From the NCBI GenBank assembly GCA_036488585.1, contig DASXHH010000008.1:3069-67068 (forward strand): 64,000 bases of DNA, written 5' to 3'. The translations under genes were made by a program, and so were the position numbers. This DNA comes from Candidatus Saccharimonadia bacterium. GTDB taxonomy: Bacteria > Patescibacteriota > Saccharimonadia > UBA4664. Below, piece after piece: positions 1-27,588 of the stretch (position 1 is its first letter; each line of letters begins with the position of its first letter). Below the pieces are notes generated by a model. The model was given only the letters and a program-made list of their open reading frames with translations, ran no database searches and had not been told where the DNA came from.

Positions 1-293
1 GTCGTGCTTGCCCCAGCAGTCGAGGAGCCGAGTGTTGCCGACCTCGATGTAAGAATTGTGCTCGCCTGCGCAGGCACAGCAATAAACATGGTCGACATCA
101 GTGAGGCCAATCCGGCCCATACACCTATCCGTTTGAGTACCCCAGCATAGTGGGCTCGAAGGATCTCTCCTCTCGTCCTCATAATTACACTCTTTCCTTT
201 TTAAGCTATTGCACTAATTACCCTCAGCCTAGCATAAGCTTTATGTGACAGTCAATCACTTTTTACAACACCCTGAACAGAGGCTGAACCCAC

Positions 294-1175
294 CTAGTAG
301 GTCCCTGTAGCCACCAGTGTCATGCTACCCGAATACCCACCACTTGGAGTTAGCGTCGATATGTTAGCCAAAAAAGTCACTGTGTAATCGGTTTCCCCGG
401 AGCTCTTTGGTCCCGAAGCCACCGTCTCACCGGAAACATATCGATAGGCTGCCGATAGTCCACCCACTGTGTAGGGACGTGTGGAGCCGTAGGTCCCGGT
501 GATGCCATCACCTGCCACGCCATAACAAAAACCTGTAGCCTGACAAGCCGGATCTGCGGAACCCGGCACCGGGTCCACCGGGCTCCGATCGGCTACCAGG
601 TTTATACCAAACTGCTCAGTTCCTACAGCCGACCCGCAACCCCACGCATTACCACATGTAGCCGTCGTGATGGCAGTAAGATTATGACCACTGTACGAAG
701 GCGTGGAACCTATCGCTTGCACTACGTAACCCGACGATGTGTAATCACTCACTGAAAAGGAAGCAGTCTTAGTAGTCGCTACAGCCGTAGAGAGCACGCC
801 AAAGTTAATTGATGCGGTGTTAATAGAAAGCATAAGGCCCGGCTGTGCGGTGGTATCGAACCCCGCATTGCTCTGGTAGTTACTCGAAGCCGAGTTGCCT
901 ACCGTCGCCTCACCCAGACTCGAGCCGCCATCGTCGGTGGCCGGGTTTAGTGAGTAGTTCGACGATGCACCACAGGTATATACCCCAGACACCTGCGAGC
1001 AACCGTTGCCGCCCACCTCGGTCTCGGTAGCGCTGTAGTTACTGGAGGTCATGGTGGGATCCGACGCGCTAAACGCTCCGCCAGCCGTCGCCAGCACTAG
1101 GCAAGCACCAATTACAAGCTGTCGTCTCCATCCACGCATTACACCCATCTTGCCGCATTTTGACGCTCTGTGCAA
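294..1175 (-). CDS. Secreted surface protein with N-terminal signal peptide and a C-terminal tail (…SGSMTLVATGTY) related to the WxL-like paralog family at 17260-20945
   Basis: N-terminus MHRASKCGKMGVMRGWRRQLVIGACLVLATAGGAFSA reads as a signal peptide. The mature protein is Ser/Thr/Gly-rich with SSNY repeats like the 19887-20945 protein. Its C-terminal block TDYTVTF…YSGSMTLVATGTY resembles the DYTDTLTVVGAG[YN]F tails. Confidence 0.5.
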   Translation of the reverse strand: MHRASKCGKMGVMRGWRRQLVIGACLVLATAGGAFSASDPTMTSSNYSATETEVGGNGCSQVSGVYTCGASSNYSLNPATDDGGSSLGEATVGNSASSNYQSNAGFDTTAQPGLMLSINTASINFGVLSTAVATTKTASFSVSDYTSSGYVVQAIGSTPSYSGHNLTAITTATCGNAWGCGSAVGTEQFGINLVADRSPVDPVPGSADPACQATGFCYGVAGDGITGTYGSTRPYTVGGLSAAYRYVSGETVASGPKSSGETDYTVTFLANISTLTPSGGYSGSMTLVATGTY

Positions 1176-1243: not shown

Positions 1244-2149
1244 ATGCCGCCCAGCCAGGCGCCCGATAATCAATCTCCCAAGCCACGAAAGAACAAGAGT
1301 TGGGACACCCTCAAAACCCGTGCCAACGCTGGCGCTAGTATCGCCGCGCTGTTTATTTTTCTGGCGGGCTGTGGTGCCGCTATCGGTTATTACTACGCAC
1401 AGTCAAAGAAATCCCCTGCTCAACCGCAATCGACCATCCAGACTCTCTCATCCCAGGACATCGAGAGGCTCAACGAAATCGGTGCCAATCTCGGCAGTGC
1501 CGGCCAGAAGCTAAACGTGGGCGCCGACGCGCTCTTCCGCGGCAAGGCCGATGTCACCGGCGATCTGACTGTAGGCGGCCGGCTCAACGCCAACGGACCG
1601 GTCACGCTCAGCCAGCTCAACATCACTGGCAACACTGCCGCCTCCGGCCTCAACGTTGGCTCCAACCTCAACGTTACGGGCAACACCACTTTCGGTGGCA
1701 CCCTCACCGTCAACAAGCTCACCACCGTCAACTCCAACCTTAACGTCTCTGGCAACGCCAGCGTCGGCGCGCTCAGCGCCACCTCCATTGCCGTCCGCAG
1801 CATCACCATCTCCGGCCCGCTCACCATTTCGCACCTGGTCAGCCAGGGCACCGTCCCGTCCGCCGCCGCCCTCAGCGTCGGCGGCGGCGGCACTGTCTCC
1901 ATCTCTGGTAATGACACCACGGGCCAGGTCGACGTTAACACCGGCTCCGGTCCTGGCTCCGCCCTAGCCCAAGTCACCTTCCGCGCTGCCTACAGCGGCA
2001 CCGTTCACGTGCAGCTCACTCCCCTCACTGCGGACGCGGCCACTTCCGGCTACTACGTCATACCCAACGGCGGTTCCGGTTTCCAGGTCCATGCCGTAAA
2101 TCCGCCACCGGGCAAGACCCTCCAGTTCGACTATCTTGTAATGCAATAA
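1244..2149 (+). CDS. Membrane-anchored (N-terminal TM) beta-helix/solenoid-repeat protein with a C-terminal H-type-lectin-like domain
   Basis: Basic N-terminus then a TM helix (SIAALFIFLAGCGAAIGYYYA). Short Gly/Asn/Thr repeats follow (LNVxGNxxxxGxLxV…). C-terminal VTFRAAYSGTVHVQLTPL…SGFQVHAV…FDYLVMQ parallels the Helix pomatia agglutinin pattern ITFxxP(Y/F)xxPVV…SxTGF…SW(I/V). It is a paralog of 23375-24439. Confidence 0.5.
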   Translation: MPPSQAPDNQSPKPRKNKSWDTLKTRANAGASIAALFIFLAGCGAAIGYYYAQSKKSPAQPQSTIQTLSSQDIERLNEIGANLGSAGQKLNVGADALFRGKADVTGDLTVGGRLNANGPVTLSQLNITGNTAASGLNVGSNLNVTGNTTFGGTLTVNKLTTVNSNLNVSGNASVGALSATSIAVRSITISGPLTISHLVSQGTVPSAAALSVGGGGTVSISGNDTTGQVDVNTGSGPGSALAQVTFRAAYSGTVHVQLTPLTADAATSGYYVIPNGGSGFQVHAVNPPPGKTLQFDYLVMQ

Positions 2150-2151
2150 CA

Positions 2152-2186
2152 AACGAAGAGCTGCACATGAAGTGTGGCTCTTCGTT
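2152..2186. terminator. Hairpin between the convergent genes 1244-2149(+) and 2185-2391(-), a possible bidirectional terminator
   Basis: 10-bp stem aacgaagagc (2152-2161) pairs with gctcttcgtt (2177-2186) around a 15-nt loop. There is only a weak T-run. Confidence 0.3.
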
Positions 2187-2391
2187 AAGCTTTATGAGTC
2201 TTCAGCTCAATAATCTCTTCGGCCCGACGGTTCTCCAACCGCTTCATGCCGTTCAGCTCTAGCTCGAGCTTAGCAATCCGCGTCTTGAGCGCCCGAAATT
2301 GCCGGTCGTTGGCCGCAAACCCCTGACGTATCTGCTCCCCCAACGCCGAAAACTCGTGCTTAATCTGCTCATCCATAGAAGTTGCCTGCAC
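2185..2391 (-). CDS. Small charged coiled-coil hypothetical protein (68 aa) at the distal end of the giant surface-protein operon
   Basis: ORF with heptad-like charged sequence (…RALKTRIAKLELELNGMKRLENRRAEEIIELK). No recognisable homology. Confidence 0.3.
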   Translation of the reverse strand: MQATSMDEQIKHEFSALGEQIRQGFAANDRQFRALKTRIAKLELELNGMKRLENRRAEEIIELKTHKA

Positions 2392-2459
2392 CCCCGCTTC
2401 TATTTCAGTATCCCCTCATCTCTAAAACTATGCTACCAACAAAAACCGTAAAAACAATA

Positions 2460-5400
2460 CTACTGCGCGGTATCAAGCAAGCAACCGTTCGCGATCACAC
2501 GGTTACAACCTGTGTTCGTAAACGACGCCCCGTGCCGCAGTCGCCGACCCGGGTTGGGGTGGTAGAAGATGTTAATGTCGGTAGCCACACTTCCGGTATC
2601 GGGGAATGTCCCCGTGTATTGGTCGTCAATTGTCAAAAAGATGTAGTAGTTAAACGCGATACCCACATCCGTACCAGAGCCATCTAGCGCCTTCAGGAAG
2701 TAAAACTTGTTCGCATAGTCCGGCACGATGTTCTGCGGCACGCCAAACGTCGTCGAACCAACCGCCGCCGTGCGCATCGTCACCACGTACTGACCGGTAC
2801 CGTTCACCTGCACCAGCGTCGGCGAGGTGTTCACCTCGGTGTTGAACATCTTCGAGTAGTGCCCCTTACGCGCCTCGGCCTTCTGGCCCACATAGTCCAC
2901 ATTCGTTATGGCCGACGAGCAGGTCCCGCTGCTCAACGTGCAGCCACCTACCAGATAGAAAAACCCATCGTTAAACGCTACCGCACCGTGGGCGTGAGCG
3001 TTGGGCATTCCCACACTTGACGCTCGGGACATCTGCCCCAACGTATTGTTAGCATTAATCGGCGCGAACTGCACCTCCGTAGCCGAGTTCTCATCGCCAA
3101 AGAAGTACATAAACCCATTCGCCCCTACCATCGGCCGTGCCCGCCCATTCAGATCCTGGTAGTTCGTATACTTGAAGGCGTGGAGCGAACCGTCCGTATT
3201 CAATGTGGCGTACTGGATATCACCGAGATTATTTGTGCCATCGTAGCCTCCTGAAACATACAAAGCAGACGCATAACCCATAGCGCTCAAATCAAATCTA
3301 GTAGTAGAAAAATTATTGCTGCTTGTGCACCAAGTGTTGGTAAGGGTACCGTCACTGCACACCGGCGACAACACAGGACCCGACTCGCTCATTTCCGTGT
3401 ATAGCACATCGCTCTTAGATGTTGTGCATACTCCACTGGTAGCCGCCGTGCAACCACCGGCCACATACATATAACCTCCGGATGTGGAGATACCAAACGC
3501 TCTCCTTCCTGTCGGCAGAAACCCGCTGGTGCTCTGAGCAGATGTATCGGTCCATCCCGTAATCACTCCAGTCGTGCTCAAAGTCGCATACAGCACCGAA
3601 TTATCAAACGGACTACTCGGAGTGGAGCCACCTACTATGTAGATCCTGCCCGAGTAGCCAATCGCACCGCCCAGCGCCCGGCCGGTGGCCAATTGTTGAT
3701 CTACTGTGTTATCCGTAGCTGTCCATGAACCTAAGGATCCGTCAGCGTTAATGGTGGCATGCTGGACCGCCGTCGACCAGGCCGAGCAGTTTCCCGATGT
3801 ATATGCCGTGCAACCGCCAATAATATACAAGTTACCGTTGTACGCCACGCTCATCAGGTCCGACCTCGCCGGGGATAGCGCTGTTCCGGTAGACCAGGCG
3901 TTCCCCGGCGATGTGGTCACCAGACTGGTCAGCCCTGTGCCGCCATTAATGGCACTGGCATACTCCGCCGAGGCCAAATAGGTCGTACACGGGTTGGTAA
4001 CTACCGAGCACCCTCCTACCGCGTATAATCTACCCCCCGAGCTCACCGCCCCCGCCCCCCACCGCGCCGTCGTCAATGTGCGTGCACTAGTATTCCAGGC
4101 CGTCACGTTGCCACTCGCATCCAAGGTGCCAAACGAAACCGCATTGCTCACGGCGGGTGTACCCGCAGTATTAATGCCACCAAACAGATAGATAACGCTT
4201 TTTAATACTGTCGCACCCACAAACTTATGGCCTACTGATGTAGACGATAATGAGGCCTGGCCCGTAGAGGAAAACGCTCCCACATACCCATCCGCACTGC
4301 TTATCGCGGCCCTTTGAGTATCGCTCAGTGCGTTGCCGCTCCCGTCCACACCGGCGACCAGATACAAATACCCATAGTAGGCCACTCCACCAAATCCATA
4401 TCTCGCCGTCGTGAACGTATTGCCGACCTTGCACCAGTTATTGGTGAGGGTCCCGCCGTTGGCCACACAGTTCGTCGGGCTGGCAAACGTCCCTGCCCCG
4501 GTAACCTGCGTATACTCCACGGTATTGAAAGGCCCACCCGTTCCGGTCCCACCCATAATGTAGATGTAATTCTGATATGTCACGGCCGAAAGCCAATACC
4601 TGGGCGACGAAAACGTATTGGTCTCGGTGGTCCAGGAAGTAATGCTGCCCGAGCTTGGCGTCGCAGAATAAACTGCTGTCGAGCCGGCTGTCGATCCAGA
4701 ACCGGTCCCGCCCAGGAAGTACACCTTGCCGCCAAATGCCGCCAGCGCACCGCCATACTTCACCGCCGGCAAGCCGGTCTGGGCTGTCCACGTCCCCACC
4801 GTACCGTCATCATTTATTGGCGCCGAATCGACATTAGTAAGCGCCGTGCCACAGTTCGTCCCATTGCAACCACCCGCAACGTACAGGTAGCCGTCATAAG
4901 CCAATGTTGCCGCACCATCGCGCGCGGTAGCCACACTACCTCCCGAAGCGGGGCTCTTCAGGTCACCGGGGTAGGTAACCGAACTGTTAATCGTGGCGTT
5001 GATAATTGCGTATTGCGAATCCCCTAGCGCCGCAAAGCAGTTGTTGTTGTTGTTTGGTTCGCTGGTGCACCCTCCGATCGAATACAACACACCATTATAA
5101 GCGGCCACACTATTGTAGAACCGCGCCGTAGTGATATTCGTGGACGTGTCCCACTGCCCTACGGTCCCGTCGGAGTTCACCACCGCAAAATAAGTTCCAT
5201 TCAACAGACTCGAGCACGGCACTGTAGAGGCACACCCACCCACGAGATAGATATACCCATCCTCCACATCCAATCCCCCACTCCGCCAACCAGTCGGAAG
5301 TACATTCGCAAATGCGGTAGTAGTAGCCCAGGTCGCAAGCGAGTTATCGTTCTGGATAGTCACGTACTGCACATCGGTGAGGACGGAACCACTGTAACCA

Positions 5401-7070
5401 CCGGCAATATACAGGTAGCCGTTGTACGAGACCATCGCGAACCGGTCGCGGCCGGTAGTGAAGCTACTAGCCGTACACCAGTTGGTCGCCGTCCCCGACA
5501 ATGTACAGCCGGCACTCGGCTTGGTCAGTGTCCCGTCCGAGTTGATCTGGGTGTATTCGCAGGTATTTGTGAGCGTACCATTGTTCTTGGCTAGCGCGCC
5601 ACCGCAGACATAAAAGTAACCGTTGTACTCGGCCGCTCCCATGTACGCCCGGGCAAAACCGATGGCATTACCCGAAATATCCGACCAGGCGTTGGGAATA
5701 TCACCGTTACTCCCCACCTGCGCGGATTCCACATCCTTGTACCGCGTACCACCGTTAGCGTTCTCACCTCCGATCACATACAGGTAACCGTTGAACCCCA
5801 ACAGCGCCGTGCCGGTGCGACCAAGAGTAAAGTGGTTAGTCGCCACATTCCAGGTGCCCAACGTTCCGTTGCTTTGAATCTGTGTGTAGCACACATAGGT
5901 TCCCGAACCGTCACCGCCTCCGGCCAAATAAAGGTAGCCGTTATAAGCAGTTAGACCGAAGTTGTAATCGGCGCCAGCCGAAGAGCAGCCGGTCGGCAGA
6001 CTGCCGCTCACCGCTGTGTTCCACGAGCTCACCAAACCGCCCGTAATTGGCGCGCGATTCAGCTGACCGTCGGTGCCGCTGGGGGTCGTTAGAGTCAGGT
6101 TATCCTCCACCTTGCCGAGCAAGAAGTCCGACGTGCTGGTGATCACGAACGACGGGTCTATGCTCAGCGGATATGCCGCCTTCGAGAACCCGGTCGCCAC
6201 CACGGTCAATGTGTTGCCGTTCAGCACGAAATGCGCCTTCACGCCGTGGGTACCACCATCCGCTTGATTCACCACGGGCGCCGGGATCTCGAACATCAGG
6301 TAGGTCTTATCGGCCTTCTTGCGCGCGTCCATCACCTTCGCGCGGTCCTTATCGGTCGAGAAACTAATGTTTCCAAACAGTGCCGGATCGCCCGAAAACA
6401 CCCCCACGGCCCCGTTAGCCAGTAGCCGCGCCTGCAGACCGTCGTCCAACTTCAACTGGTAATCGTACTTCACCCGATCACCCACTGTCCGGTCGAGCAC
6501 GATGTCTTCCTTCACCCCGTTGCCCTTAGGGGTAAGTGCCAGTACTCCGGGGTTGTCACTGAGCGGGTACAACACCCGGTTGCCCACCTTGCGTCCGTCC
6601 ATCAGCGAGTACTGCGGCGTCATCGTCGCCGACACCTGGTGCTGCGTATCGGTGAGCTTGATACCCGCGTCGGCTTTGGTCGGGAGCTTGGCCGAGTACG
6701 GCTCTTTCTTGCTATCGCTGCCCACGCGTACCATACCGTCGTCGCCCGCCGGCGACTGGCCATCCTTATTGAAGTACACCGCGTCGTCCTTCTGGTCGTA
6801 CTTGAGCTGCCCACCCAGTTGGTCGCTCGCGTGGGTCATCACCTTCGTCTCGTCGTCGAACAGATGGTACCGCGCCTCGCCCTGCATATACCCAAGCACC
6901 GGCGCCACCATGCCGCCGACCGTCACACCAATCACCAGGGCATGCAACGGTTTGCGCACGTCCACCTGTCGCACATTTTTCCTAACCCAACCCAGCCACC
7001 GGCCATTTTGAGGCCAGGTAGCAGGGAGCAAATGTGTCACAAATCCTTCAAGCCAAAGCTTAGGTGTCAC
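2460..7070 (-). CDS. Giant (1536 aa) membrane-anchored Kelch-repeat protein, with roughly 17 Kelch blades arranged as about three beta-propellers
   Basis: N-terminal hydrophobic anchor (ALVIGVTVGGMVAPVLGY). At least 17 repeats carry the Kelch signature hydrophobic-Y-x-x-GG with a W about 20-25 residues after, e.g. NGYLYVIGG, YNGYFYVCGG, YNGYLYIAGG, DGYIYLVGG, YDGYLYVAGG, SGRIYIVGG, DGFFYLVGG. Confidence 0.7.
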   Translation of the reverse strand: MTPKLWLEGFVTHLLPATWPQNGRWLGWVRKNVRQVDVRKPLHALVIGVTVGGMVAPVLGYMQGEARYHLFDDETKVMTHASDQLGGQLKYDQKDDAVYFNKDGQSPAGDDGMVRVGSDSKKEPYSAKLPTKADAGIKLTDTQHQVSATMTPQYSLMDGRKVGNRVLYPLSDNPGVLALTPKGNGVKEDIVLDRTVGDRVKYDYQLKLDDGLQARLLANGAVGVFSGDPALFGNISFSTDKDRAKVMDARKKADKTYLMFEIPAPVVNQADGGTHGVKAHFVLNGNTLTVVATGFSKAAYPLSIDPSFVITSTSDFLLGKVEDNLTLTTPSGTDGQLNRAPITGGLVSSWNTAVSGSLPTGCSSAGADYNFGLTAYNGYLYLAGGGDGSGTYVCYTQIQSNGTLGTWNVATNHFTLGRTGTALLGFNGYLYVIGGENANGGTRYKDVESAQVGSNGDIPNAWSDISGNAIGFARAYMGAAEYNGYFYVCGGALAKNNGTLTNTCEYTQINSDGTLTKPSAGCTLSGTATNWCTASSFTTGRDRFAMVSYNGYLYIAGGYSGSVLTDVQYVTIQNDNSLATWATTTAFANVLPTGWRSGGLDVEDGYIYLVGGCASTVPCSSLLNGTYFAVVNSDGTVGQWDTSTNITTARFYNSVAAYNGVLYSIGGCTSEPNNNNNCFAALGDSQYAIINATINSSVTYPGDLKSPASGGSVATARDGAATLAYDGYLYVAGGCNGTNCGTALTNVDSAPINDDGTVGTWTAQTGLPAVKYGGALAAFGGKVYFLGGTGSGSTAGSTAVYSATPSSGSITSWTTETNTFSSPRYWLSAVTYQNYIYIMGGTGTGGPFNTVEYTQVTGAGTFASPTNCVANGGTLTNNWCKVGNTFTTARYGFGGVAYYGYLYLVAGVDGSGNALSDTQRAAISSADGYVGAFSSTGQASLSSTSVGHKFVGATVLKSVIYLFGGINTAGTPAVSNAVSFGTLDASGNVTAWNTSARTLTTARWGAGAVSSGGRLYAVGGCSVVTNPCTTYLASAEYASAINGGTGLTSLVTTSPGNAWSTGTALSPARSDLMSVAYNGNLYIIGGCTAYTSGNCSAWSTAVQHATINADGSLGSWTATDNTVDQQLATGRALGGAIGYSGRIYIVGGSTPSSPFDNSVLYATLSTTGVITGWTDTSAQSTSGFLPTGRRAFGISTSGGYMYVAGGCTAATSGVCTTSKSDVLYTEMSESGPVLSPVCSDGTLTNTWCTSSNNFSTTRFDLSAMGYASALYVSGGYDGTNNLGDIQYATLNTDGSLHAFKYTNYQDLNGRARPMVGANGFMYFFGDENSATEVQFAPINANNTLGQMSRASSVGMPNAHAHGAVAFNDGFFYLVGGCTLSSGTCSSAITNVDYVGQKAEARKGHYSKMFNTEVNTSPTLVQVNGTGQYVVTMRTAAVGSTTFGVPQNIVPDYANKFYFLKALDGSGTDVGIAFNYYIFLTIDDQYTGTFPDTGSVATDINIFYHPNPGRRLRHGASFTNTGCNRVIANGCLLDTAQ

Positions 7071-7120
7071 TCACAACTCCTTACCATAAGCTTAATGGTT
7101 CAGAGTCTCAGAATCAAACG

Positions 7121-7726
7121 CTACTGGGCTTTGCTCACCGGCATCATAGCTGCCAGCAACTTGGCCCACTTGTCGTACGACAGGATCTCTCCTGCTTGCC
7201 CAAACATCAAAATGTCATCGTTCGCATAAATCACCGTGTCTGCACCATTCGCCGGCACTCCATTCGTTAGCGTAGTCCGGAAATACGCTTTTCCCTTCCC
7301 TGCCGGCTCACTCATAGTCACATTCGACTGGCTAATAAATTGATTAAACTTCGCCGACGTGTCCCACGGCTTGAGTTCATCCGGCATCACTTGCTGGCTA
7401 ATCGTCACTATCGTGCCACCCGTTAACTTCATCTGGTAGTCCACTACCCCCCTCGAAGCATCAAACACCGGCGATTTGGGATCAAAAGTCCAATCCGGGC
7501 TCGCGGCCGGCACCCAGAAAGTAAAGCTGGCTTTGCTCGCGTCCTTCACCACTGTCAACGTGCCCTGCTGCACCTTCTGATTATTTAGGGAGATGCTCGG
7601 CAGATGGATATGCAACAACGAGGCCACCTCCCCCACCAGGTTCACAAAACCCACCACCAGCAACAGCGCCAGGACTGCCCCGATCACTCGCCACTTTTTT
7701 GGAATCTCTTTCAACACATTCAACAC
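7121..7726 (-). CDS. Membrane-anchored hypothetical protein (201 aa) sitting between the two giant genes
   Basis: N-terminal TM (WRVIGAVLALLLVVGFVNLV) then a soluble domain. Same strand as both giants with short gaps to each. Confidence 0.5.
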   Translation of the reverse strand: MLNVLKEIPKKWRVIGAVLALLLVVGFVNLVGEVASLLHIHLPSISLNNQKVQQGTLTVVKDASKASFTFWVPAASPDWTFDPKSPVFDASRGVVDYQMKLTGGTIVTISQQVMPDELKPWDTSAKFNQFISQSNVTMSEPAGKGKAYFRTTLTNGVPANGADTVIYANDDILMFGQAGEILSYDKWAKLLAAMMPVSKAQ

Positions 7727-7738
7727 GTATCTAGTGTA

Positions 7739-10700
7739 CTACTTACCCTTCATGCTGAAGGTGATCCGCCCGGCGTATGAGAAGGCGTTGTTCTTGGACG
7801 ACATATCAACCCGGAAAATGATGATGTCTCCTGGTGAGAACCCGCAGGTGTTAGGATCGGTTGCATATGATACTGTCTGCCACGTGTTCGCGGAAGTCGT
7901 AACATTAGTGGATGTCCCACAAGCAGCACCGCTGTTCTCGAATACCGAGTACGCGACATCTGCATCGGTGGTCGACGAGACCCGGCCCACCATCTTCAGC
8001 GTAGTCGAGTTCAGGAACCCGCCGAAGGTCGGCGGCAACTGGTACTTCACATAAATGCTATAGGTCTGAGCAGACACCTGTGAAGTCGTCCACTGGTAGT
8101 AGTTGAACTCCTCACCACTGTTAGCGCATAAGGTCGCGTTGATGCCCTGGGCGTTCGAGCAGATGTTGGCGGTCATGGTACCGATGTGCGTGTCCGTACC
8201 CACACCCGGGTTCAACACAGCGCCGGCGTATTCGGGCTCGAGAATCAGGTTCGAGTCAGGTGCAGCACCACATGAACCCCAGCCGTCCTTCTCATAGCAC
8301 TGGATGCGGCCAAGCGTAGTGCTGTAGTACATGGAACCGAGCATGTTCTGGTTCACAGCACCCGCGACCGGATCGTTGGCAAAAGAGTCGAGCTGGAAGA
8401 TGGTGAGACCCTGGCTCAAGGGACCACCCACCTGGAGCTCACCAGTGTTTAACGAACCCGAAGTGCTTTGGGCGCCGACAAACAAGTTGTCGATGTACAG
8501 GTGGCGCGTAGTAGCATCAGCTGCACGTATGCGGATGTGGTTGGCTGTAGTCTTCGCGGTCGCAGAGGTTGTGAAGTAGCAGGTCCACTTGAAGAACCCA
8601 GTGGTGGTAATGGTGCCGTTGTCCGGGGTGGTGCAAGTGGCGTCTAGGTTAGTGGCGTCTCTGTAGTACTCCACGATCAGGTTAGCATTGGTCGGCGCCG
8701 AGGTCCCGGCCTTGATGTTGAACGATACGTTGTACAGCTGACTAGTGGACAAAGCAGTGCCACTCAGGTCGTTGTCAGCGCCGCCGGCCCCAGTAAGGCT
8801 AATGTCTAGAGATCCAGTACCCGATGCCAGATTAGTGGCAGATATATTTCGTAACAACGAAGCGCTTCCGGTCGCGGTCCAGCCGGTCGTACCCGTACCC
8901 TCAAGGCCGCTGTTGTCGGCCAGGTTGGCACCCGTAGCGGTGTTAGTGGTGTCAACGTGCAGTACCGGAGCAGCCAAGCTGTTACCAATCTGGAACAGGT
9001 TGGCGTTGTCGTAACCAACACCCGCCTGGAAAAGCAGGTTCTTGGTGGCAGAAGTGGTGATAATGCCGGCCGGCGCTGTTGAGGTGTTGTCGTAAACCTG
9101 CTGCAACGAGGACGCAGTAGTGGTACCACTCCAGTTAGTTCCGTTCCAGATCAAAGTCGAGGTGTTACCGGCTCCCATGTTCACGCTCGAGGTCATACCG
9201 AACGCAGACAATGTAAATGACCCTGATCCAGAAGCCGCTGAAACCAAAACGATATGGCCCGGTGTGGTATTGGTCGGCGCCGGCAGGCTAACGATAGCGC
9301 CCGTAAAGGCCCCAGTCGTTACATTCACGACGATCGTGCCGTAGGTATCTACATCGGACTGGCTGACGTTGAAGGTCTGGGGGCTGCTGGACTGAGTAAA
9401 GCTCTCGCTATTCGAATTGAAGACCGGCGAGCCTAGGCTCACGATACCAGGCGAACCCGTGCCATGCGCTGTCCCAGCCGTCAGCGAAATGCTTCCGCCA
9501 GCGTTGTTGTTGGCCAGGGCGTTACCGCCCTGCAGTGTAATACTACCGCCTGCGCCCTGGCTACTAGCAGCACCGGAGCCGCCGTTGGTCGCCGCGATAA
9601 CCACTAATCCGCCCGCACCGCTCGAGCCCGCCGCACCGCCGGTCACGTGGACCGTACCACCGTTGCCGGTCCCCGCTCCGGCACCACCCACGACGTTCGA
9701 GTCGCCACCGGCCGTGTTACCGCCACCACCGGCGCCACCGGTCAGAGATGCCACACCGCCCGCGCCAGTTGTACCGCCGGCTCCAGCCACCAACACCAGG
9801 TTACCACCCGCGCCAGTGCCATTGCCGGCCGCCGACCGCACCGTCAGCTTGTTGCCAGCCGTGTTGGTCGCCGTCTGGTCATCCACCGCCAACACCCGGT
9901 CGGCACCAACCCCAAACTGCAAATCTATCCCACTCTGTACCGCAGGGTTGGTCGCCGTCCCGCCCACATTTATGCCCAATCCATAGCTCGTCACCGTCAA
10001 GATCGAGGCCCCCAGCGTATCACCCGTCTGTGCCGCCCGTACTCCAAACAATTCCTGGCCCGCGCTCATGCCCGACGAGATCGCCGACTGCACCGTCACC
10101 GCCTTGTTGGTCAACGTTTCCAAAATACTTGGCTGCGCACCGGCCGAGTTGTTATAGGCATCCTGCAGCTTCACTACGCTACCGGCCGAATTGAACGTCG
10201 TCGTCCAGTTGGAGCCATCATAGATCAGCATGATGATGTTACCTACCGGCACCGACTGACCCACTACCGTTATCGCACTGGTGGAAGCCACCAGATTGCT
10301 GATGTAAATGATCGAACCCGCCCCCGCCGTTGGTGTACCAATAGATGCAGATGTAAGCGTGGTCGTCCCTGTATCGGTAATCGTAAACGTCGTACAATCA
10401 TTCACGCTCTTAGGGGAGGTGAAAGATAATGTACCGGACGCGCCCGTGTACGCGCACACTACATTCTGCGTGGCACCATTGTTCTTAAATAAGGTCGACG
10501 AGCCAGTCGATCCCACTGTCACGCTATTATTGGCGATCAAATTGCCGGTCACGCCGCTAATCGTCACAGCCGTCGACAACGAGTTGGCTGACGAGCCAGT
10601 AGAGCCAGGCTTCGCAATCTTAAAGTTAATGTCGCCACCGTTGCCAGTACCGGTGCCGATCCCGCCGGCTATCGTAAAGCTGGCCCCAGCGATATTACTT

Positions 10701-13411
10701 CCAGTACCTCCCGTCGCGTGCAGCGCAATGCTAGTCGGCGAAGCATCCGTCACACCCGATCCAAAATACGCATCCTGAACGTAAAAACCGGATGAAGTCG
10801 AACCTCCCACCACCAGCTCATTACTAGCCCCAGCCACCGCACTTGTACCAATGGCAATACTACTAGCGGCCGCGTTGGCGTGTACACCTATTGCCACGCC
10901 ATATGCAGCCGCTGCCGTGCCATACCCCAAAGCGACCCCACCCGGTCCAGTAGTATTGGCACCGTATCCAACAGCCGTACTGTACTGAGTCGCTATTGCC
11001 GAATAGCCGAAAGCCGCGCCCTGCGCCGCCGCTACTGCACTGTCGCCAGCCGCCACGGCCTGAGTCCCCGATAGTGACGCGTTTAAGCCAAACGACTCAC
11101 TATTGGTATAGCCCTGCGTATTAGTAATGTATGCATTTGGCCCCTGCAAATTCAAACCGGTGTTATACCCCAGGTCTACCGCATTTGAACTTGAATCGGA
11201 CGTCAATGCCGATCCAGATGCCGTATAAGTGGCATAAATAGACGCTTCATAGCTCGTATCGTAGAAGGTGCCCGCCCCGGTCACCGAACCAAACGACGCC
11301 GGCATGCTACCGCCAAACGCCCGGGTATTAAATACGAACGGCGACCCCGCGCCAGATGGGTTCACCAACGCCTCATCGCTCAGTGTCGAGTCGTTAGTCC
11401 AAAACGCCAGCCAATAGGTAGTGTTAGCCGCCAGCGTCACGCCGGAAATCGCCATCGCGTTCCAGGAATTACCTGTCAGTCCTGTCTGTGCAGTAGAGGA
11501 GATTAGCGTTGACGGACAATCTGGGTTCGGCGAACAACCCGAGCTGGTATCGGCGTAAATACCCATCTGGCCAAGGGCTCCACCGGTAACTCCCGAGTGT
11601 ATGTACACAGACATACTCCCGATTGAACCTGCCCCTGTCGGAGAGGTAGTAAACTTTTGAGCCGTCAGCAAACCATAGTCCGAAGCACCAGCCGTCCCAA
11701 TCGTGCCGTTTCCTAGCGTCCCAGTCGGCGCCTTACCCAACGTCACCTTATCAGCATCTGTAGCCTTCAGTAGCTCGAAACCTCCCGAATCTTGCACATC
11801 GAGCACCGTTGAGTTGGCACTGGCGTTTTGCACGCTTAATGTCGCACTCGGCGAAGCGCCGTCAATGCCCACCCGACCGCTCGCCGTATCCACTACCAGA
11901 TCCGCGGTGGTACCAGTGCCGTTCTTCACCTGAAAAGCCGTGGATGAATCATGACCACTGGTCGGTTGCACCAACGCCGTACCGTTGATGGTGGTCGCGA
12001 TGTTACTGGTAGTGTTGCCAAGATTGATGGCGTTGGCGTTTAGATTGCCTACGGTCAATGCACCAGCACTGGCAGTATCCAGCCGTGGGCCATAAAACGC
12101 CGTGGTCGCAGTGACGGTGCCGGTAAAGTTTGCTGCCGCCGAAATAGTTTGGCCGTTTACTGTATCGGTAGTGCTTGAGCCGCCATTTTGCGTTACATTG
12201 CCACTCGAATCCACCGCAAATTTACTAACACTCCCCGACTGCAGATCAATCAGGTTGCCACTTGGGCTACTGGCCGTGTTATTGGCCACGATCAGCGCGT
12301 TGCCCGATCCCGGGTTGCCGCTGGCTGTCACGTACAGCGCGTCGCCGGTGTTGGTCTGGTTGTCGAGCGACAGCACCCCGCTCGCCACCGCCGAGCTGGT
12401 GTTCTTAAAACCATACAGATAGTTCGTAGCCGTCACCGCAAACTGCGAGGTATCAGCCGCATTCTTGGCCAAGTAACTACCTGCCACCTGGTAAGTCGCA
12501 CTACAAGTGCTGGCCACCGTGGTGCACACCGTGCCACCCGCATCCGGGAACGTAATCGTATTGTTATGCGTTGGCGTGGTGAACCCAACTGTCGTCGTGT
12601 TGATACCGTTAGTCGCCGTCAGTGTCGAGGTCGAGTTGCCCTGAATCACAAACGGCGTGGTCGTGCGGCCGATCTTGATATTGCTGGCCATACCGGTACC
12701 GATGTCGAGCTCTACCCCGGTAGTCGTATCCACCAGCGGCGCTTGCAGGCTAGTATTTGCGATCACATTACCGGTCACCGCCAGCGAACCAGTCTGCGCG
12801 CTCTCCGAACCCACTGTCTGTAGCTGCCCAAACGCACTCGAGTCCAACCCGTCCAGCAGATTCGAGTTCATCGCATACGGTGCGGCCGTAAACCGGATCA
12901 TCGGCAGCATCTCACCATCGCCGCCAGCAGCTCCAAACGTCACCGCAGTCGAGGTGCCACCCAGATTGATCGATAGCCAGATGGTGTTGTTGTTAAAAAT
13001 CGCCGGTAGCGACGTAATCGAGCCCAGGTCCACCTGGAACACGCCATCCGTTACCGTCACCCGGTTATCCGGCGAACCGCTGCCGTACACGTGATCCTCG
13101 GTCCATTGCAACGTGCCACCACATGGAGAACTCCCGCCACTCACGCACCCGTTACCACCGGTATAAAGCTTGAATTCTACGTTGTAGGTGCCGTTCGGTA
13201 CATTGGTCCCATCGGTGTTTACCAGCTTGCCCTGGAAGTTAATCTGGTTGTTAATCGCCGCCACGGCCGTACCCGGCTGCATCACTGCCACCAGTCCGCT
13301 CAGTAAGACCCCAAAAACACCAGTCACCGCTAGGGCCCTGGTTACTGCGATCCGGCGGTCTGTACCGGCTACCCTGCCTATGCGCCTGATCAGACGATAG
13401 AGGTCGCTCAC
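7739..13411 (-). CDS. Giant (1890 aa) secreted/anchored fibrous surface protein, Gly/Thr/Ser/Asn/Ala-rich, with a GGAGG-type Gly-rich tract and a Cys-containing C-terminal globular domain
   Basis: N-terminal signal anchor (ALAVTGVFGVLLSGLVAVMQPGTAVAA). Very low-complexity G/T/S/A/N composition. Internal …GAGGTTGAGGVASLTGGAGGGGNTAGG… tract around nt 9450-9900. C-terminal ~230 aa hold 8 or more Cys. All plus-strand ORFs inside are Pro/Arg-rich antisense artefacts. Confidence 0.7.
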   Translation of the reverse strand: MSDLYRLIRRIGRVAGTDRRIAVTRALAVTGVFGVLLSGLVAVMQPGTAVAAINNQINFQGKLVNTDGTNVPNGTYNVEFKLYTGGNGCVSGGSSPCGGTLQWTEDHVYGSGSPDNRVTVTDGVFQVDLGSITSLPAIFNNNTIWLSINLGGTSTAVTFGAAGGDGEMLPMIRFTAAPYAMNSNLLDGLDSSAFGQLQTVGSESAQTGSLAVTGNVIANTSLQAPLVDTTTGVELDIGTGMASNIKIGRTTTPFVIQGNSTSTLTATNGINTTTVGFTTPTHNNTITFPDAGGTVCTTVASTCSATYQVAGSYLAKNAADTSQFAVTATNYLYGFKNTSSAVASGVLSLDNQTNTGDALYVTASGNPGSGNALIVANNTASSPSGNLIDLQSGSVSKFAVDSSGNVTQNGGSSTTDTVNGQTISAAANFTGTVTATTAFYGPRLDTASAGALTVGNLNANAINLGNTTSNIATTINGTALVQPTSGHDSSTAFQVKNGTGTTADLVVDTASGRVGIDGASPSATLSVQNASANSTVLDVQDSGGFELLKATDADKVTLGKAPTGTLGNGTIGTAGASDYGLLTAQKFTTSPTGAGSIGSMSVYIHSGVTGGALGQMGIYADTSSGCSPNPDCPSTLISSTAQTGLTGNSWNAMAISGVTLAANTTYWLAFWTNDSTLSDEALVNPSGAGSPFVFNTRAFGGSMPASFGSVTGAGTFYDTSYEASIYATYTASGSALTSDSSSNAVDLGYNTGLNLQGPNAYITNTQGYTNSESFGLNASLSGTQAVAAGDSAVAAAQGAAFGYSAIATQYSTAVGYGANTTGPGGVALGYGTAAAAYGVAIGVHANAAASSIAIGTSAVAGASNELVVGGSTSSGFYVQDAYFGSGVTDASPTSIALHATGGTGSNIAGASFTIAGGIGTGTGNGGDINFKIAKPGSTGSSANSLSTAVTISGVTGNLIANNSVTVGSTGSSTLFKNNGATQNVVCAYTGASGTLSFTSPKSVNDCTTFTITDTGTTTLTSASIGTPTAGAGSIIYISNLVASTSAITVVGQSVPVGNIIMLIYDGSNWTTTFNSAGSVVKLQDAYNNSAGAQPSILETLTNKAVTVQSAISSGMSAGQELFGVRAAQTGDTLGASILTVTSYGLGINVGGTATNPAVQSGIDLQFGVGADRVLAVDDQTATNTAGNKLTVRSAAGNGTGAGGNLVLVAGAGGTTGAGGVASLTGGAGGGGNTAGGDSNVVGGAGAGTGNGGTVHVTGGAAGSSGAGGLVVIAATNGGSGAASSQGAGGSITLQGGNALANNNAGGSISLTAGTAHGTGSPGIVSLGSPVFNSNSESFTQSSSPQTFNVSQSDVDTYGTIVVNVTTGAFTGAIVSLPAPTNTTPGHIVLVSAASGSGSFTLSAFGMTSSVNMGAGNTSTLIWNGTNWSGTTTASSLQQVYDNTSTAPAGIITTSATKNLLFQAGVGYDNANLFQIGNSLAAPVLHVDTTNTATGANLADNSGLEGTGTTGWTATGSASLLRNISATNLASGTGSLDISLTGAGGADNDLSGTALSTSQLYNVSFNIKAGTSAPTNANLIVEYYRDATNLDATCTTPDNGTITTTGFFKWTCYFTTSATAKTTANHIRIRAADATTRHLYIDNLFVGAQSTSGSLNTGELQVGGPLSQGLTIFQLDSFANDPVAGAVNQNMLGSMYYSTTLGRIQCYEKDGWGSCGAAPDSNLILEPEYAGAVLNPGVGTDTHIGTMTANICSNAQGINATLCANSGEEFNYYQWTTSQVSAQTYSIYVKYQLPPTFGGFLNSTTLKMVGRVSSTTDADVAYSVFENSGAACGTSTNVTTSANTWQTVSYATDPNTCGFSPGDIIIFRVDMSSKNNAFSYAGRITFSMKGK

Positions 13412-13781: not shown

Positions 13782-13961
13782 ATGCCCGACACCAACAAAG
13801 AACCATCTAAGTCCAAGGACATGACTGTCCAAGAAGCCGGACGCCTGGGCGGACAACGCGAACGGGAGCTGGTTGAAGAAGGTCACCAGCGCGAGCACGC
13901 GGAAGGTCAGGACTTCGGCGAGAAGGTTGAACGCAAGTCCAAAGGCCGCCAGGAGGCCTAG
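13782..13961 (+). CDS. KGG-repeat general stress protein (YciG/GsiB-like), copy 1
   Basis: Strong SD aaggagg at 13768-13774 before the ATG at 13782. Protein MPDTNKEPSKSKDMTVQEAGRLGGQRE… has the same QEAG(R)xGG core as the two downstream copies. Confidence 0.6.
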   Translation: MPDTNKEPSKSKDMTVQEAGRLGGQRERELVEEGHQREHAEGQDFGEKVERKSKGRQEA

Positions 13962-14401: not shown

Positions 14402-14608
14402 ATGGCAACTAGCAAGCGCAACCAGAACCAAGAGGGCACGATGAGCGTAAATGAGGCCGGCCGCCGCGGCGGTGAAGCCACCAGTCAAAGCCACGGCCGC
14501 GAATTTTACGAGGAGATTGGACAGAAGGGCGGCCAGCGCGTCCGCGAGCTGATCGAAGAGGGCAAAGAGGCCGAAGGCAACTCCGACAACCAGCGCTCTT
14601 CGCGCTAA
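14402..14608 (+). CDS. KGG-repeat general stress protein, copy 3
   Basis: SD aaggagg 8 nt upstream of the ATG. Protein …VNEAGRRGGEATSQSHGREFYEEIGQKGGQRVRELIEEGKEAEG. Confidence 0.7.
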   Translation: MATSKRNQNQEGTMSVNEAGRRGGEATSQSHGREFYEEIGQKGGQRVRELIEEGKEAEGNSDNQRSSR

Positions 14609-14650: not shown

Positions 14651-14679
14651 GAGCGGCGCCGTAGCGCCGCTCTCTTTTT
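14651..14679 (+). terminator. Rho-independent terminator of the KGG/DUF2795 operon
   Basis: gagcggcgc(cgta)gcgccgctc hairpin at 14651-14672 followed by tctttttg. Confidence 0.6.
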
Positions 14680-14711: not shown

Positions 14712-15161
14712 ATGATACTATCTGGCAAACAACTCACGCTGTGCGTGGTTCTCGGAGTCCTCCTCGGCACTGGCATGATCGCCACTCACACCGGGCCCGG
14801 CCTCGCCGCTGACGTTGCCAACACGCCGCACAGCCGCAATACCGTGCGTCAAAACGACTTGAACACGCTGGCCCAAGCGCTGGCCCAATACAAAACCGAC
14901 CACACCGCTTTTCCTGTAAAACTCCCTGCCACCGACACACCCATTTGCACCAGCGCCGGCCAGGATTGCACCTCCAAGCACTACGCCGACCTCAGCTTCC
15001 TCATTACCGGCGGCGATTACCTCACCGCCATCCCGGTGGATCCAGGCCAGGCAGTTGGCCTCTGGGCCAGCGGCTACAACATCTCGCAGCTACCAGACGG
15101 CACCATCCGTCTTACCGCCCCCCAAGCCGAAGCTGGGGCCACCATCTCGGTCGTCCGCTAA
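14712..15161 (+). CDS. Secreted small protein with a pilin/pseudopilin-like segment (RQNDLNTLAQALAQYKTDHTAFP) and a Cys pair, possibly pilin-like
   Basis: N-terminal hydrophobic signal (LTLCVVLGVLLGTGMIA). The segment resembles the post-helix region of type IV pilins/GspG. No canonical G|FTLIE prepilin site. Its 3' end overlaps the convergent gene at 15112 by 50 nt. Confidence 0.35.
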   Translation: MILSGKQLTLCVVLGVLLGTGMIATHTGPGLAADVANTPHSRNTVRQNDLNTLAQALAQYKTDHTAFPVKLPATDTPICTSAGQDCTSKHYADLSFLITGGDYLTAIPVDPGQAVGLWASGYNISQLPDGTIRLTAPQAEAGATISVVR

Positions 15162-16080
15162 CGAGCCACCACACTCCGAGTCCCAGCATTGCCAATAACA
15201 GCACCGCCACCGCCCACAGCCACCAGGCGCCGGCGTACCAGAAGCTCACCCGCGCCGATTGCGTTGTGGTCGTGCCGTCGTACCGGTATACCGTGGTCGC
15301 CGTGTACCGGCCCGGCAGCCAGGCGTTGGCCAGCTGGACCAAGGGCGTCTGGTACCGCCGAAAACTTCCCGGCAAAATAATTCCTGAATCTTCATTGAGC
15401 GCGCCTCGCATCACCTGCCGGCCCAACGGGTCCTGGATCGTCACCGTCCCCCGCGGCACCACGTGCACTGCCCCGTCGTCCAAGAACCGTTCATTGACAT
15501 TAACTGGCAGACTCAGGGCTCCCCTGCCCCCCAGGGTTTGATCCACCAGCCTCAAATTTGGCGGAGCGCTACCATCCTTCAGCAAAAACAGAAGCGAGGA
15601 CAACACCTGCGTAATACCCACTCGCGAATTCTTGGCCGCATCCGTCGGGGCGGTCTGCGCTTCTGCCTCTAGTGCTGCGTAGTGGCCGCCCGACGCCAAC
15701 GACTGCGCATTATCAATCGTCATCCCAATCTGCACCGTGGCGCCGGCCGGCACCGTGGCATCGTGCTTGTCCAACGATACCCAGTTAGTAAGTCCGTGAG
15801 CTTTCTCGAAATCGCTCGTCGCATCGTTTAAAAATGCCACTCCTCCCGATTCGTCCAACGAACCAAAATCCTTAACCTCAAACCTGAACGTCTGGCTCAC
15901 CGCCGAATTGTTCGTCAACATCACCGTGTATTGCGCGCTCGCCTGGTTCTGGCCCAGACTCACCTCTTGGTACACTGGTGAGATTGTCAGCCCGGAGCCG
16001 CCACCAACCGCCAAACCAACTTGTGGCCAAGCCGCCCCCACCAGGGCCAGCGCCAGCCCCCTACTTACACGGCGCTTCAT
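15112..16080 (-). CDS. DUF916/CscA-like cell-surface protein (signal peptide, Ig-like body, C-terminal TM helix and basic tail), copy 2
   Basis: The ORF track starts at 16197, but the signal peptide begins at the in-frame ATG 16080 (MKRRVSRGLALALVGAAWPQVGLA). This ATG overlaps the upstream gene's TGA in an ATGA arrangement at 16077-16080. C-terminal WWLWAVAVLLLAMLGLGVWWLV plus an R-rich tail. Architecture matches DUF916 proteins of Gram-positive Csc/WxL loci. Confidence 0.5.
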   Translation of the reverse strand: MKRRVSRGLALALVGAAWPQVGLAVGGGSGLTISPVYQEVSLGQNQASAQYTVMLTNNSAVSQTFRFEVKDFGSLDESGGVAFLNDATSDFEKAHGLTNWVSLDKHDATVPAGATVQIGMTIDNAQSLASGGHYAALEAEAQTAPTDAAKNSRVGITQVLSSLLFLLKDGSAPPNLRLVDQTLGGRGALSLPVNVNERFLDDGAVHVVPRGTVTIQDPLGRQVMRGALNEDSGIILPGSFRRYQTPLVQLANAWLPGRYTATTVYRYDGTTTTQSARVSFWYAGAWWLWAVAVLLLAMLGLGVWWLVSGRPRWWPQLRLGGR

Positions 16081-17243: not shown

Positions 17244-17259
17244 AACTGTAATTCTCCTT

Positions 17260-18381: not shown

Positions 18382-18472
18382 TCCATCACAAGTATGGAGG
18401 AATTATCTCAAAAGCATAAGCAGCTATCAAGCCCCTTATGCTTTATTTTGAGATTTGGCCCAGTCTATTGAC

Positions 18473-19756: not shown

Positions 19757-19886
19757 TCTTTTCTGTGTGTTGATAACTTTTTGGTTTTGTTAACTCTTAA
19801 GCTTAAGTCTAACCAGCACCATCATAAGTGTCAACAACTTTTACAACAGTTTTTTCCACAACACCAGAAGAAACGCGAGCTTAAGC

Positions 19887-27518: not shown

Positions 27519-27588
27519 GCCGCCGACCGGGCCTCAGTTACCCCCCTATCTTATCCTACGAGCCCACCATTTTGTACGCCTATCATAC

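Follow-up and report, generated by a model that had tools for sequence, protein, structure and literature searches.

A giant modular fibre with a predicted carbohydrate-binding tip is encoded beside Pam-type pilus clusters in a Saccharimonadia genome

The DNA analysed here, referred to as the window, is a stretch of 64,000 nucleotides (nt) on the forward strand of contig DASXHH010000008.1 (assembly GCA_036488585.1) from a Candidatus Saccharimonadia bacterium. Towards its start, four consecutive genes on the minus strand encode, in the order of transcription, a giant fibre protein of 1890 amino acids (aa), a 201-aa membrane protein, a 1536-aa Kelch protein and a small helical protein (Table 1). 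An initial annotation had singled out these open reading frames (ORFs) as an operon of surface proteins, and an ORF check of the window recovered all four on the same strand and at the same coordinates. The genes are separated by gaps of 12, 50 and 68 nt, respectively. Promoter and terminator scans gave results at chance level, and co-transcription of the four genes is plausible.

An artefact behind the length of the giant genes had been considered unlikely from the outset, and the data bear this out. The fibre gene is present at 100% identity in a Joint Genome Institute assembly, where it is called from a later start codon, the record of the metagenome-assembled genome at the National Center for Biotechnology Information (NCBI) annotates an identical 1890-aa product ('Candidatus Saccharimonadia bacterium'), and 174 homologues of the fibre were retrieved at E ≤ 1e-5. 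No DNA tandem repeats were found in the giant-gene region and BLAST self-comparison of the fibre protein revealed no internal repeats, which rules out a low-complexity or tandem-repeat artefact. The protein is therefore compositionally biased, with G, T, A, S and N making up 59% of its residues, and not repetitive. The earlier picture of a low-complexity flexible fibre thus holds for the residue composition and fails for the low complexity, since repeats are lacking, both ends fold confidently and the modules are conserved.

The fibre begins with a predicted signal peptide, directly followed by a domain that we call the N-domain. An AxA motif stands immediately before the mature INFQG sequence in every aligned fibre homologue and, because of this conservation, the signal peptide is probably cleaved by signal peptidase I. 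The fibre would then be secreted, with its signal peptide removed, and would not be anchored at its N-terminus. Of the N-terminal membrane anchors initially proposed for both giant proteins, that of the Kelch protein stands, as a predicted signal-anchor transmembrane (TM) helix, whereas the hydrophobic segment of the fibre is followed by AxA and is probably lost. All 16 cysteines of the fibre occur in 8 close pairs, which fits an extracytoplasmic protein; with paired cysteines in both giants and a signal peptide or signal anchor in each, their proposed extracellular location is also the predicted one. The AlphaFold2 (AF2) model of the N-domain is a beta-sandwich with a predicted local distance difference test (pLDDT) score of 82-93, and no model in Pfam or NCBIfam covers this domain.

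At the opposite end, two jelly-roll domains resembling carbohydrate-binding modules (CBMs) were recognized. The first scored 27.8 bits with CBM_4_9 (PF02018; cutoff 25.9) when the fibre segment was scanned alone, and its AF2 model (pLDDT 72-92) matched CBM22, CBM4 and CBM16 structures in Foldseek searches. The C-terminal beta-sandwich was modelled with a pLDDT of up to 95. The model of the whole C-terminus (aa 1496-1890) gave 184 PDB matches at E ≤ 1e-3, headed by tandem CBM22, CBM4, CBM16 and the CBM-like domains of GH101 and Vip3. The tandem CBM22 structure 4xup aligned across both domains (E 5.6e-9), and comparison of the C-terminal fold with 2zew yielded a template-modelling score of 0.73, normalized to the target. 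Structure prediction of the two ends, which the initial annotation had put forward as a check, thus returned confident folds for both, and the Cys-rich terminal knob described there corresponds to 6 cysteines within the last 190 aa.

Between the two ends, the proximal shaft was modelled with low confidence as a monomer. The central region contains a segment (aa 774-873) that reached 22.6 bits with the YadA_head model of Pfam, below the cutoff of 25; its match to the YadA head is the only usable PDB sequence match of the study, as searches with either end region of the fibre, with the 201-aa family or with the pilins described below gave none. The fibre had no match in NCBIfam. As modelled, the fibre is composed of a conserved base, a cassette shaft and a predicted carbohydrate-binding tip.

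This layout recurs across the family with marked variation in its middle part. Domain counts are based on 120 listed homologues of the 174 (119 for the coverage map). The N-domain is located at the N-terminus in 102 of the 120 and the C-terminal domain at the C-terminus in 51, while the central region, the least conserved part of the fibre, is covered by 5-20 of the 119. In the closest relatives, both ends show 63% identity and aa 469-957 are missing altogether. Family members range from 1100 to 3200 aa and carry Beta_helix, YadA_head, LVIVD, Peptidase_S74 or Kelch as alternative modules. An exhaustive profile search with the N-domain retrieved 19,524 cluster representatives at E ≤ 1e-3 (5,867 at E ≤ 1e-10), and the domain was N-terminal in all 150 representatives listed. 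Judged by these sequence comparisons, the fibre is a member of a huge modular family in which the middle and distal parts are swapped between relatives, in a pattern reminiscent of host-range evolution.

The presence of Beta_helix, NosD or Pectate_lyase_3 domains in some family members (P0038, P0043, P0060, P0087 and P0114) could also be read differently, the fibre being a tailspike-like depolymerase whose beta-solenoid shaft cleaves capsule or cell-wall polysaccharide of the host while the CBM-like domains only target it. CBM tandems are indeed typical appendages of glycoside hydrolases, and transposon sequencing in Southlakia suggests that glycan-targeting surface proteins may be degradative (PMC10633639). 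However, the window fibre matched no catalytic family in scans of the whole protein or of its segments, no catalytic motif was identified in it, and the central region is its least conserved part. We consider a degradative function improbable.

Pam pili are known from Candidatus Mycosynbacter amalyticus, for which they were described in 2026 (Troman et al. 2026, bioRxiv 10.64898/2026.03.03.709456). Their two-domain pilins are polymerized by donor-strand exchange, PamC and PamD are PapD-like membrane-anchored chaperones, PamT forms the tip, and the RbmA-like PamR is a membrane tether that fills the free groove at the base (bioRxiv 10.64898/2026.03.03.709456). Genes of this type lie on both sides of the four-gene block, as identified with NCBIfam release 20; a Pfam search with ten neighbouring ORFs gave no match except one sub-threshold Big_6. 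In transcription order, a gene for a 180-aa TM protein comes first, followed by the cluster preceding the block (15112..22680), which encodes a probable PamR, a 246-aa TM protein, three pilins (352, 427 and 373 aa) and two chaperone candidates (388 and 361 aa). There follow a 1.7-kb stretch, the four genes of the block, an opposite-strand gene and the PamT-like pilin of a second cluster, which extends from position 1175 downward and runs off the window start. The dedicated, stand-alone apparatus initially envisaged is thus better described as the terminal accessory part of a Pam-type cluster.

The three pilins were not recognized by the Pam pilin model of NCBIfam (NF058581). Aligned by hhalign with NCBIfam-verified Pam pilins, they reached a probability of 88.7% (E 2.6e-6, 328 columns), which indicates that these paralogues form a divergent Pam pilin subfamily. 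The chaperone candidates had no match in NCBIfam; BLAST grouped them with the gene that occupies the chaperone position in the canonical operon of a related locus (L008; related loci are numbered L001 onwards). On the basis of position, topology and BLAST grouping, both genes (15112..17243) are candidates for PamC/PamD-type membrane-anchored chaperones. As listed, their ORFs share 121 nt; a later codon is probably the genuine start of the downstream one, and a similar overlap is present in L002 and L007. The second cluster is of the M. amalyticus type, and tandem type-1 and type-2 Pam clusters are also found in L002, L006 and L007.

The coupling between fibre and Pam genes was then quantified. 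In all five long independent loci (L001, L002/3, L006, L007 and L008), the fibre gene lies directly downstream of pilin and chaperone genes. L008 bears a canonical Pam operon by NCBIfam scores (PamT 262 bits against a cutoff of 240, Pam_pilin_C 140-155 against 55, PamR 340 against 300), directly followed by a fibre-family gene encoding 3039 aa. A metagenome scan with the fibre N-domain detected 246 relatives, and the 80 loci obtained from it were annotated with hidden Markov models (HMMs) derived from the Pam-locus families. Among the 65 loci with at least 1.5 kb of sequence 5′ of the fibre gene, 59 displayed a Pam chaperone, pilin, PamR or 246-aa gene no more than 3.5 kb upstream, 49 of them co-directional with the fibre gene and 10 divergent. 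Independently, the preprint reports a 'tail fibre-like protein' that is consistently co-localised with the pam operon and forms a central node among its conserved neighbours (bioRxiv 10.64898/2026.03.03.709456). By gene order, the fibre gene is the last conserved gene of a Pam-type cluster, with the Kelch and 201-aa genes as its accessory tail end.

Table 1. Features of the four-gene block and the adjoining Pam-type clusters. Positions refer to the window; residues are those of the encoded protein.
Feature	Position (nt)	Strand	Length or residues (aa)	Remarks
Fibre gene	7739..13411	-	1890	HEY2003906.1, VGH44_02215
201-aa gene	7121..7726	-	201	HEY2003905.1
Kelch gene	2460..7070	-	1536	
Small helical ORF	2185..2391	-	68	GTG start gives 68 aa; HEY2003903.1 has 63 aa, with ATG at 2376
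Fibre, predicted signal peptide	13259..13411	-	1-51	Arg-rich n-region; hydrophobic core ending A-V-A|A
Fibre, N-domain	12821..13258	-	52-197	Ig (immunoglobulin)-like beta-sandwich; INFQGK and DGEMxP motifs; family hallmark
Fibre, proximal shaft	11732..12820	-	198-560	Common to ~40/120 listed homologues
Fibre, central cassette region	9005..11731	-	561-1469	Variable
Fibre, YadA-head-like segment	10793..11092	-	774-873	1p9h E 4.9e-5
Fibre, Gly-rich tract	9407..9829	-	~1195-1335	Recurring GGx[ILV]x[ILVF] motifs
Fibre, CBM_4_9-type jelly roll	8465..8926	-	~1496-1649	PF02018 and AF2 fold
Fibre, C-terminal beta-sandwich	7742..8362	-	~1684-1890	Three Cys pairs; CBM-like fold
Kelch protein, basic cytoplasmic tail and signal-anchor TM (predicted)		-	~42-62	No AxA site
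Kelch protein, N-domain	6051..6884	-	63-340	Without Pfam family
Kelch protein, 18 blades	2886..6050	-	341-1395	Pfam and blade counts
Kelch protein, C-domain	2463..2885	-	1396-1536	Strongly conserved; ends RHGASFTNTGCN..NGC.LDTAQ
Probable PamR, RbmA-like membrane tether	21667..22680	-		NCBIfam NF058578 E 1.9e-85, 286.3 bits, just under equivalog cutoff 300
246-aa TM protein	20930..21670	-	246	Family conserved across loci
Three pilin paralogues	17260..20945	-	373, 427, 352	End in DYTDxxTVVxAGxF
Chaperone candidates, paralogous	15112..16197 / 16077..17243	-	361 / 388	Signal peptide and C-terminal TM
PamT-like pilin, first gene of second cluster	294..1175	-		PamT E 1.9e-52; CPR_Pam_pilin_C (NF058581) 107.6 bits vs 55
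Further pilin fragment of second cluster	3..200	-		Cluster runs off window start
KGG stress-protein gene	14402..14608	+		Pfam KGG 30.9 bits
Strong hairpin with T-run	14651..14672	+		After KGG gene
ORF with pseudopilin-like N-terminus	14712..15161	+	149	GspG E 1.7e-4; overlaps chaperone gene 3′ end
Possible second small KGG-like ORF	ends at 13961	+		

Such an arrangement could mean that the Pam pilus physically includes the fibre, either as a tip or as a lateral adhesin, joined by donor-strand complementation through its N-domain or N-terminal strand; the pilus would serve as stalk and the fibre as the head that recognizes the host. The fibre gene directly follows chaperone or PamR genes at most loci, conservation within the family is highest in the N-domain, as would suit a docking module, and the preprint leaves host binding by Pam pili open. 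The mature N-terminus also opens with the conserved beta-strand INFQGK; however, AF2 places this strand inside a complete-looking sandwich (pLDDT about 90), and neither NCBIfam nor hhalign detected a Pam_pilin_C-like acceptor domain in the fibre. The published model has PamT at the tip and PamR filling the groove at the base, the N-domain tree, which was uninformative on this point, did not sort by pilin cluster type, and the 19,524 N-domain representatives may far exceed the reported spread of Pam pilins (hundreds of genomes). In this genome, an opposite-strand gene stands between the fibre unit and the pilin genes. Direct incorporation into the pilus is, in our view, rather unlikely, although it is the foremost of the alternatives. 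Similar C-terminal beta-strand motifs had prompted a comparison of the fibre C-terminal domain with the Pam pilin acceptor, for which the hhalign probability was < 3%, and this candidate was rejected.

The Kelch protein was examined with the same approaches. It exceeded Pfam thresholds with Kelch_1 (98.5 bits, cutoff 20.1) and PF24681 (102.1 bits, cutoff 50), and contains 18 blades spaced 50-69 aa apart, with Cys-bracketed loop insertions (GTLTNxWC type) at every sixth blade. Blade counts by HMM in four orthologues were 18, 18, 18 and 19. Exactly one 6-blade Kelch module occurs in each of nine fibre-family proteins, including the fibre of L001, and because these isolated modules of the relatives are six-bladed (n=9), the 18 blades are read as three propellers. 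The blade count, proposed earlier as a check, the loop pattern with a period of six and the isolated modules are all consistent with three six-blade propellers (3 x 6), close to the 'about three' of the initial annotation. The single modules in the nine fibres further show that the propeller is an interchangeable cargo or binding module, which functionally links both giant genes.

The propellers are flanked by N- and C-terminal domains that matched no Pfam family. The 26 cysteines of the protein form 13 close pairs. A long basic N-terminal segment followed by a single TM helix without AxA is kept in three orthologues, from which we infer a type II signal-anchored membrane protein, and an AGGAG sequence is located 7 nt 5′ of the start codon. 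Kelch orthologues were found downstream of the fibre gene in L001, L002/3, L004, L007/L025, L041 and L078; in L007 and L078 the Kelch gene directly follows the fibre gene and the 201-aa gene is missing. Two genes downstream of the Kelch gene of L001, a 101-aa ORF (27270..27575, plus strand) matches the Kelch C-domain profile and reproduces the last 25 Kelch residues exactly (RHGASFSNVGCNIVPANGCILDTAP); its appearance is that of a duplicated fragment or of a spare cassette for the C-terminus. Giant beta-propeller genes are also present at or near the ends of Pam clusters in L006 (27623.., plus strand), L008 (21597..24623, minus strand, and 27962.., plus strand) and L001 (25412..27049, plus strand). 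Their products include a 2069-aa LVIVD protein with the fibre N-domain, PLL-type propellers and a Tricorn/PD40-like protein, which suggests that propellers are a recurrent cargo of the Pam neighbourhood.

The 201-aa protein harbors an N-terminal TM anchor and a conserved ectodomain of ~150 aa. It has 12 homologues and no counterpart in Pfam, NCBIfam, PHROGs or PDB sequences, and its gene lies downstream of the fibre gene in L001, L002/3, L004 and L048. A relationship with the 246-aa TM protein encoded after PamR was rejected, as larger alignments confined the similarity to the TM helix. The restriction of the Kelch and 201-aa genes to close relatives indicates that they are lineage-specific additions and not core partners of the fibre. 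The small helical ORF, initially counted in the block as a coiled-coil protein, is not conserved with the module: it was absent from all 88 related loci fetched and belongs to a cluster of 4 members at 90% identity, the only one in the protein collection. Its membership of the module is doubtful on these grounds.

Between the fibre gene and the chaperone candidates, related loci have ~90-240 nt; the corresponding 1.7 kb of this genome (13412..15111) contain the plus-strand features listed in Table 1. A pair of paralogous plus-strand genes, encoding 301 aa (1244..2149) and 354 aa (23375..24439), was also noted, one beside each Pam cluster and on the opposite strand. Each product carries a TM helix at the N-terminus and repeats that resemble a beta-solenoid (LNVTGNTTFGGTLTV type), and the C-terminus is conserved (F[ND]Y[WL]V[IM]Q). 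This family, without match in Pfam or NCBIfam, comprises 10 members in one BLAST cluster and flanks Pam clusters in L001, L002, L006, L007 and L008; it may be an unrecognized Pam-associated component.

Elsewhere in the window, genes for FtsZ, FtsA, FtsW, IleRS, HisRS, RelA, RecJ, SecDF, PriA, IF-2 and S1 were identified. These housekeeping genes indicate a chromosome of the candidate phyla radiation (CPR) and not a mobile element or phage, and the small streamlined genome suspected at first agrees with a reduced-genome CPR bacterium of the Saccharimonadia. Capture or remnant of a prophage tail fibre, with no role as a cellular adhesin, was nevertheless considered, as the preprint names the family 'tail fibre-like', one homologue (P0102) carries Peptidase_S74, and the best BFVD matches, which were non-significant (best E 0.019), are tail fibre or Peptidase_S74 proteins. 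Searches by tblastn against 50,697 phage genomes found no match, nor did PHROGs, and no BFVD match reached E ≤ 0.001. Moreover, the neighbours are pilus and housekeeping genes instead of phage genes, and virion proteins have no Sec signal peptide such as the one predicted for the fibre. A phage origin of this kind is extremely improbable.

Other observations concern the window at large. GC skew is negative over nearly all 64 kb (cumulative -5.9) and the long ORFs are mostly on the minus strand. No transfer RNA genes or Rfam families were detected across the 64-kb window. Two overlapping paralogous ORFs of 205 and 196 aa (25170..25787 and 25759..26349, minus strand), both ending in ...RQRGVV, had neither a signal peptide nor a family match. 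Two large minus-strand ORFs of 695 and 548 aa (53506..55593 and 55659..57305) lie amid the housekeeping genes and have no Pfam match.

A structural role of the giant proteins, as components of the envelope or of an S-layer, would reduce their adjacency to pilus genes to a shared regulation of surface structures. Proteins of S-layers and envelopes are commonly large, rich in T, S, N and G and equipped with secretion signals, M. amalyticus possesses an outer layer, and the very wide N-domain family could represent a general wall-anchoring module. Cassettes are, however, swapped between close relatives, unlike in lattice-forming proteins, family lengths vary from 1100 to 3200 aa, the C-terminus consists of CBM-like binding modules, and no giant protein is listed among the 40 most abundant proteins of M. 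amalyticus. We therefore regard such a structural role as very unlikely.

Comparison with known systems helps to place the locus. It resembles the Pam system of M. amalyticus, also a member of the Saccharimonadia, by the presence of a probable PamR, a PamT-like pilin and a Pam_pilin_C pilin, chaperone candidates with a C-terminal TM helix and an adjacent giant fibre gene, and differs from it by the divergent pilins upstream of the fibre, unseen by the NCBIfam models. The fibre neighbour is mentioned in the preprint without analysis, and the two fibres are likened here by description; fibre domain anatomy, family size and the Kelch and 201-aa partners do not appear there. Adhesins of the FimH/PapG type share with the fibre a gene position at the end of a donor-strand-exchange pilus operon and carbohydrate binding, predicted in the case of the fibre. 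FimH and PapG measure ~300 aa and join a lectin domain to an incomplete Ig pilin domain, into which a donor strand is taken up; no such acceptor was found in the fibre, which is 4-10 times larger.

Like the trimeric autotransporters of the YadA family, the fibre appears as a long fibrous adhesin built from exchangeable beta-rich cassettes, including a segment of possible YadA-head-like repeats. Unlike them, it has no C-terminal beta-barrel anchor (no YadA_anchor match), no coiled-coil stalk was detected, and the organism has no outer membrane. Its polarity is also reversed, the conserved module being N-terminal and the binding modules C-terminal. Phage tail fibres and tailspikes resemble the fibre in having a conserved N-terminal attachment module, a variable cassette shaft, a C-terminal receptor-binding domain and mosaic evolution. 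The fibre differs from them in being predicted to be Sec-secreted, in its chromosomal location within a pilus locus, in lacking an intramolecular chaperone domain, and in showing no sequence match or significant fold match to phage proteins.

Among the giant proteins of Patescibacteria (Absconditicoccaceae proteins >1500 aa and the essential adhesins of Southlakia), very large secreted or anchored glycan-binding or adhesion proteins are likewise encoded by the reduced genomes of epibionts and are proposed host-recognition factors. The published ones carry FnIII, VCBS, Ca-tandemer, ConA or integrin domains, and neither the N-domain, the CBM-tandem fibre and the 18-blade Kelch architecture nor a link to Pam has been reported for them. 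The Kelch protein shares with galactose oxidase and KLHDC2-type six-blade propellers the repeated motif with GG and Y/W signatures, scores above Pfam thresholds and a probable six-blade unit. It differs by combining three probable propellers in one membrane-anchored bacterial ectodomain, by disulfide pairs in its blade loops and by the lack of a catalytic or BTB partner domain.

We favor, with reasonable confidence, the view that the block encodes an adhesion module which acts outside the cell, is directed at glycans and is inherited along with Pam pili. The attachment or host-interaction role put forward in the initial annotation remains the best reading, given the CBM folds, the YadA-head-like segment and the predicted surface location. 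The fibre would be exported by Sec, its signal peptide removed, and its Ig-like N-domain would dock it to a conserved partner on the surface, which could be the Pam pilus, a chaperone component or the envelope. From the N-domain, a long beta-rich shaft of exchangeable cassettes (YadA-head-like and Gly-rich solenoid-like) would extend and present the two C-terminal CBM-like jelly rolls, which may bind a glycan of the host surface. The Kelch ectodomain, with its three predicted six-blade propellers, would offer a second surface for ligand binding, close to the membrane. The 201-aa protein, for which the initial annotation had suggested assembly or anchoring, would be a membrane-anchored accessory of this lineage. 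Patescibacteria typically have giant surface proteins that carry adhesion domains (PMC13059738), and glycan-binding adhesins are essential for the epibiotic growth of the Saccharibacterium Southlakia (PMC10633639).

Several observations weigh against an adhesion module of this kind. The fold search with the N-domain gave generic Ig and fibronectin type III matches only, the best at E 0.08. As CBM folds are also found in enzymes and toxins, the prediction for the fibre tip concerns a fold class and not a ligand. Since the C-terminal domain bears no likeness to a pilin acceptor, the usual way of joining a tip adhesin to a donor-strand-exchange pilus is not evident. The opposite-strand KGG gene in the 1.7-kb gap implies that in this genome the fibre unit does not share an operon with the pilin and chaperone genes. 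Of the 29 metagenome loci with downstream sequence, the Kelch gene came next in 2 and the 201-aa gene in 1. Finally, the absence of a giant protein from the M. amalyticus proteome refers to an abridged table of the 40 most abundant proteins, which is uninformative on the fibre.

A more specific and more speculative form of the adhesion module, which we hold to be unlikely, is that the N-domain mounts interchangeable giant receptor-binding fibres on Pam pili or on a membrane-anchored assembly platform, with the Kelch and 201-aa proteins as lineage-specific co-receptor or assembly parts. If the N-domain did dock in this way, CPR epibionts would possess a phage-like, cassette-swapping host-range system on a donor-strand-exchange pilus, and the cassettes would be CBM tandems, single Kelch propellers, LVIVD or PLL propellers and beta-helices.

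Modular adhesins of fibrous form are already known, as are giant surface proteins in CPR bacteria and adhesin genes that close a pilus operon, so the locus introduces no new principle, and the Pam link was noted in one sentence of the preprint. What is new is the domain make-up of the fibre, how large its family is and the modular logic that it follows, the coupling to Pam genes expressed in numbers, the subfamily of divergent pilins, and the partner proteins, one with 18 Kelch blades and one of 201 aa. The N-domain of the fibre, both flanking domains of the Kelch protein and the 201-aa family are unannotated and merit family models of their own.

Cultivated Patescibacteria live attached to specific host bacteria, and their host recognition is largely unexplained; by their own account, the authors who described Pam pili do not know in what way the pilus makes contact with the host (bioRxiv 10.64898/2026.03.03.709456). 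Modular fibres with a predicted CBM tip, encoded beside the Pam genes in most loci examined, are concrete candidates for host-range determinants, and these candidates are addressable in tractable or cultivated Saccharibacteria such as Southlakia, TM7x and M. amalyticus.

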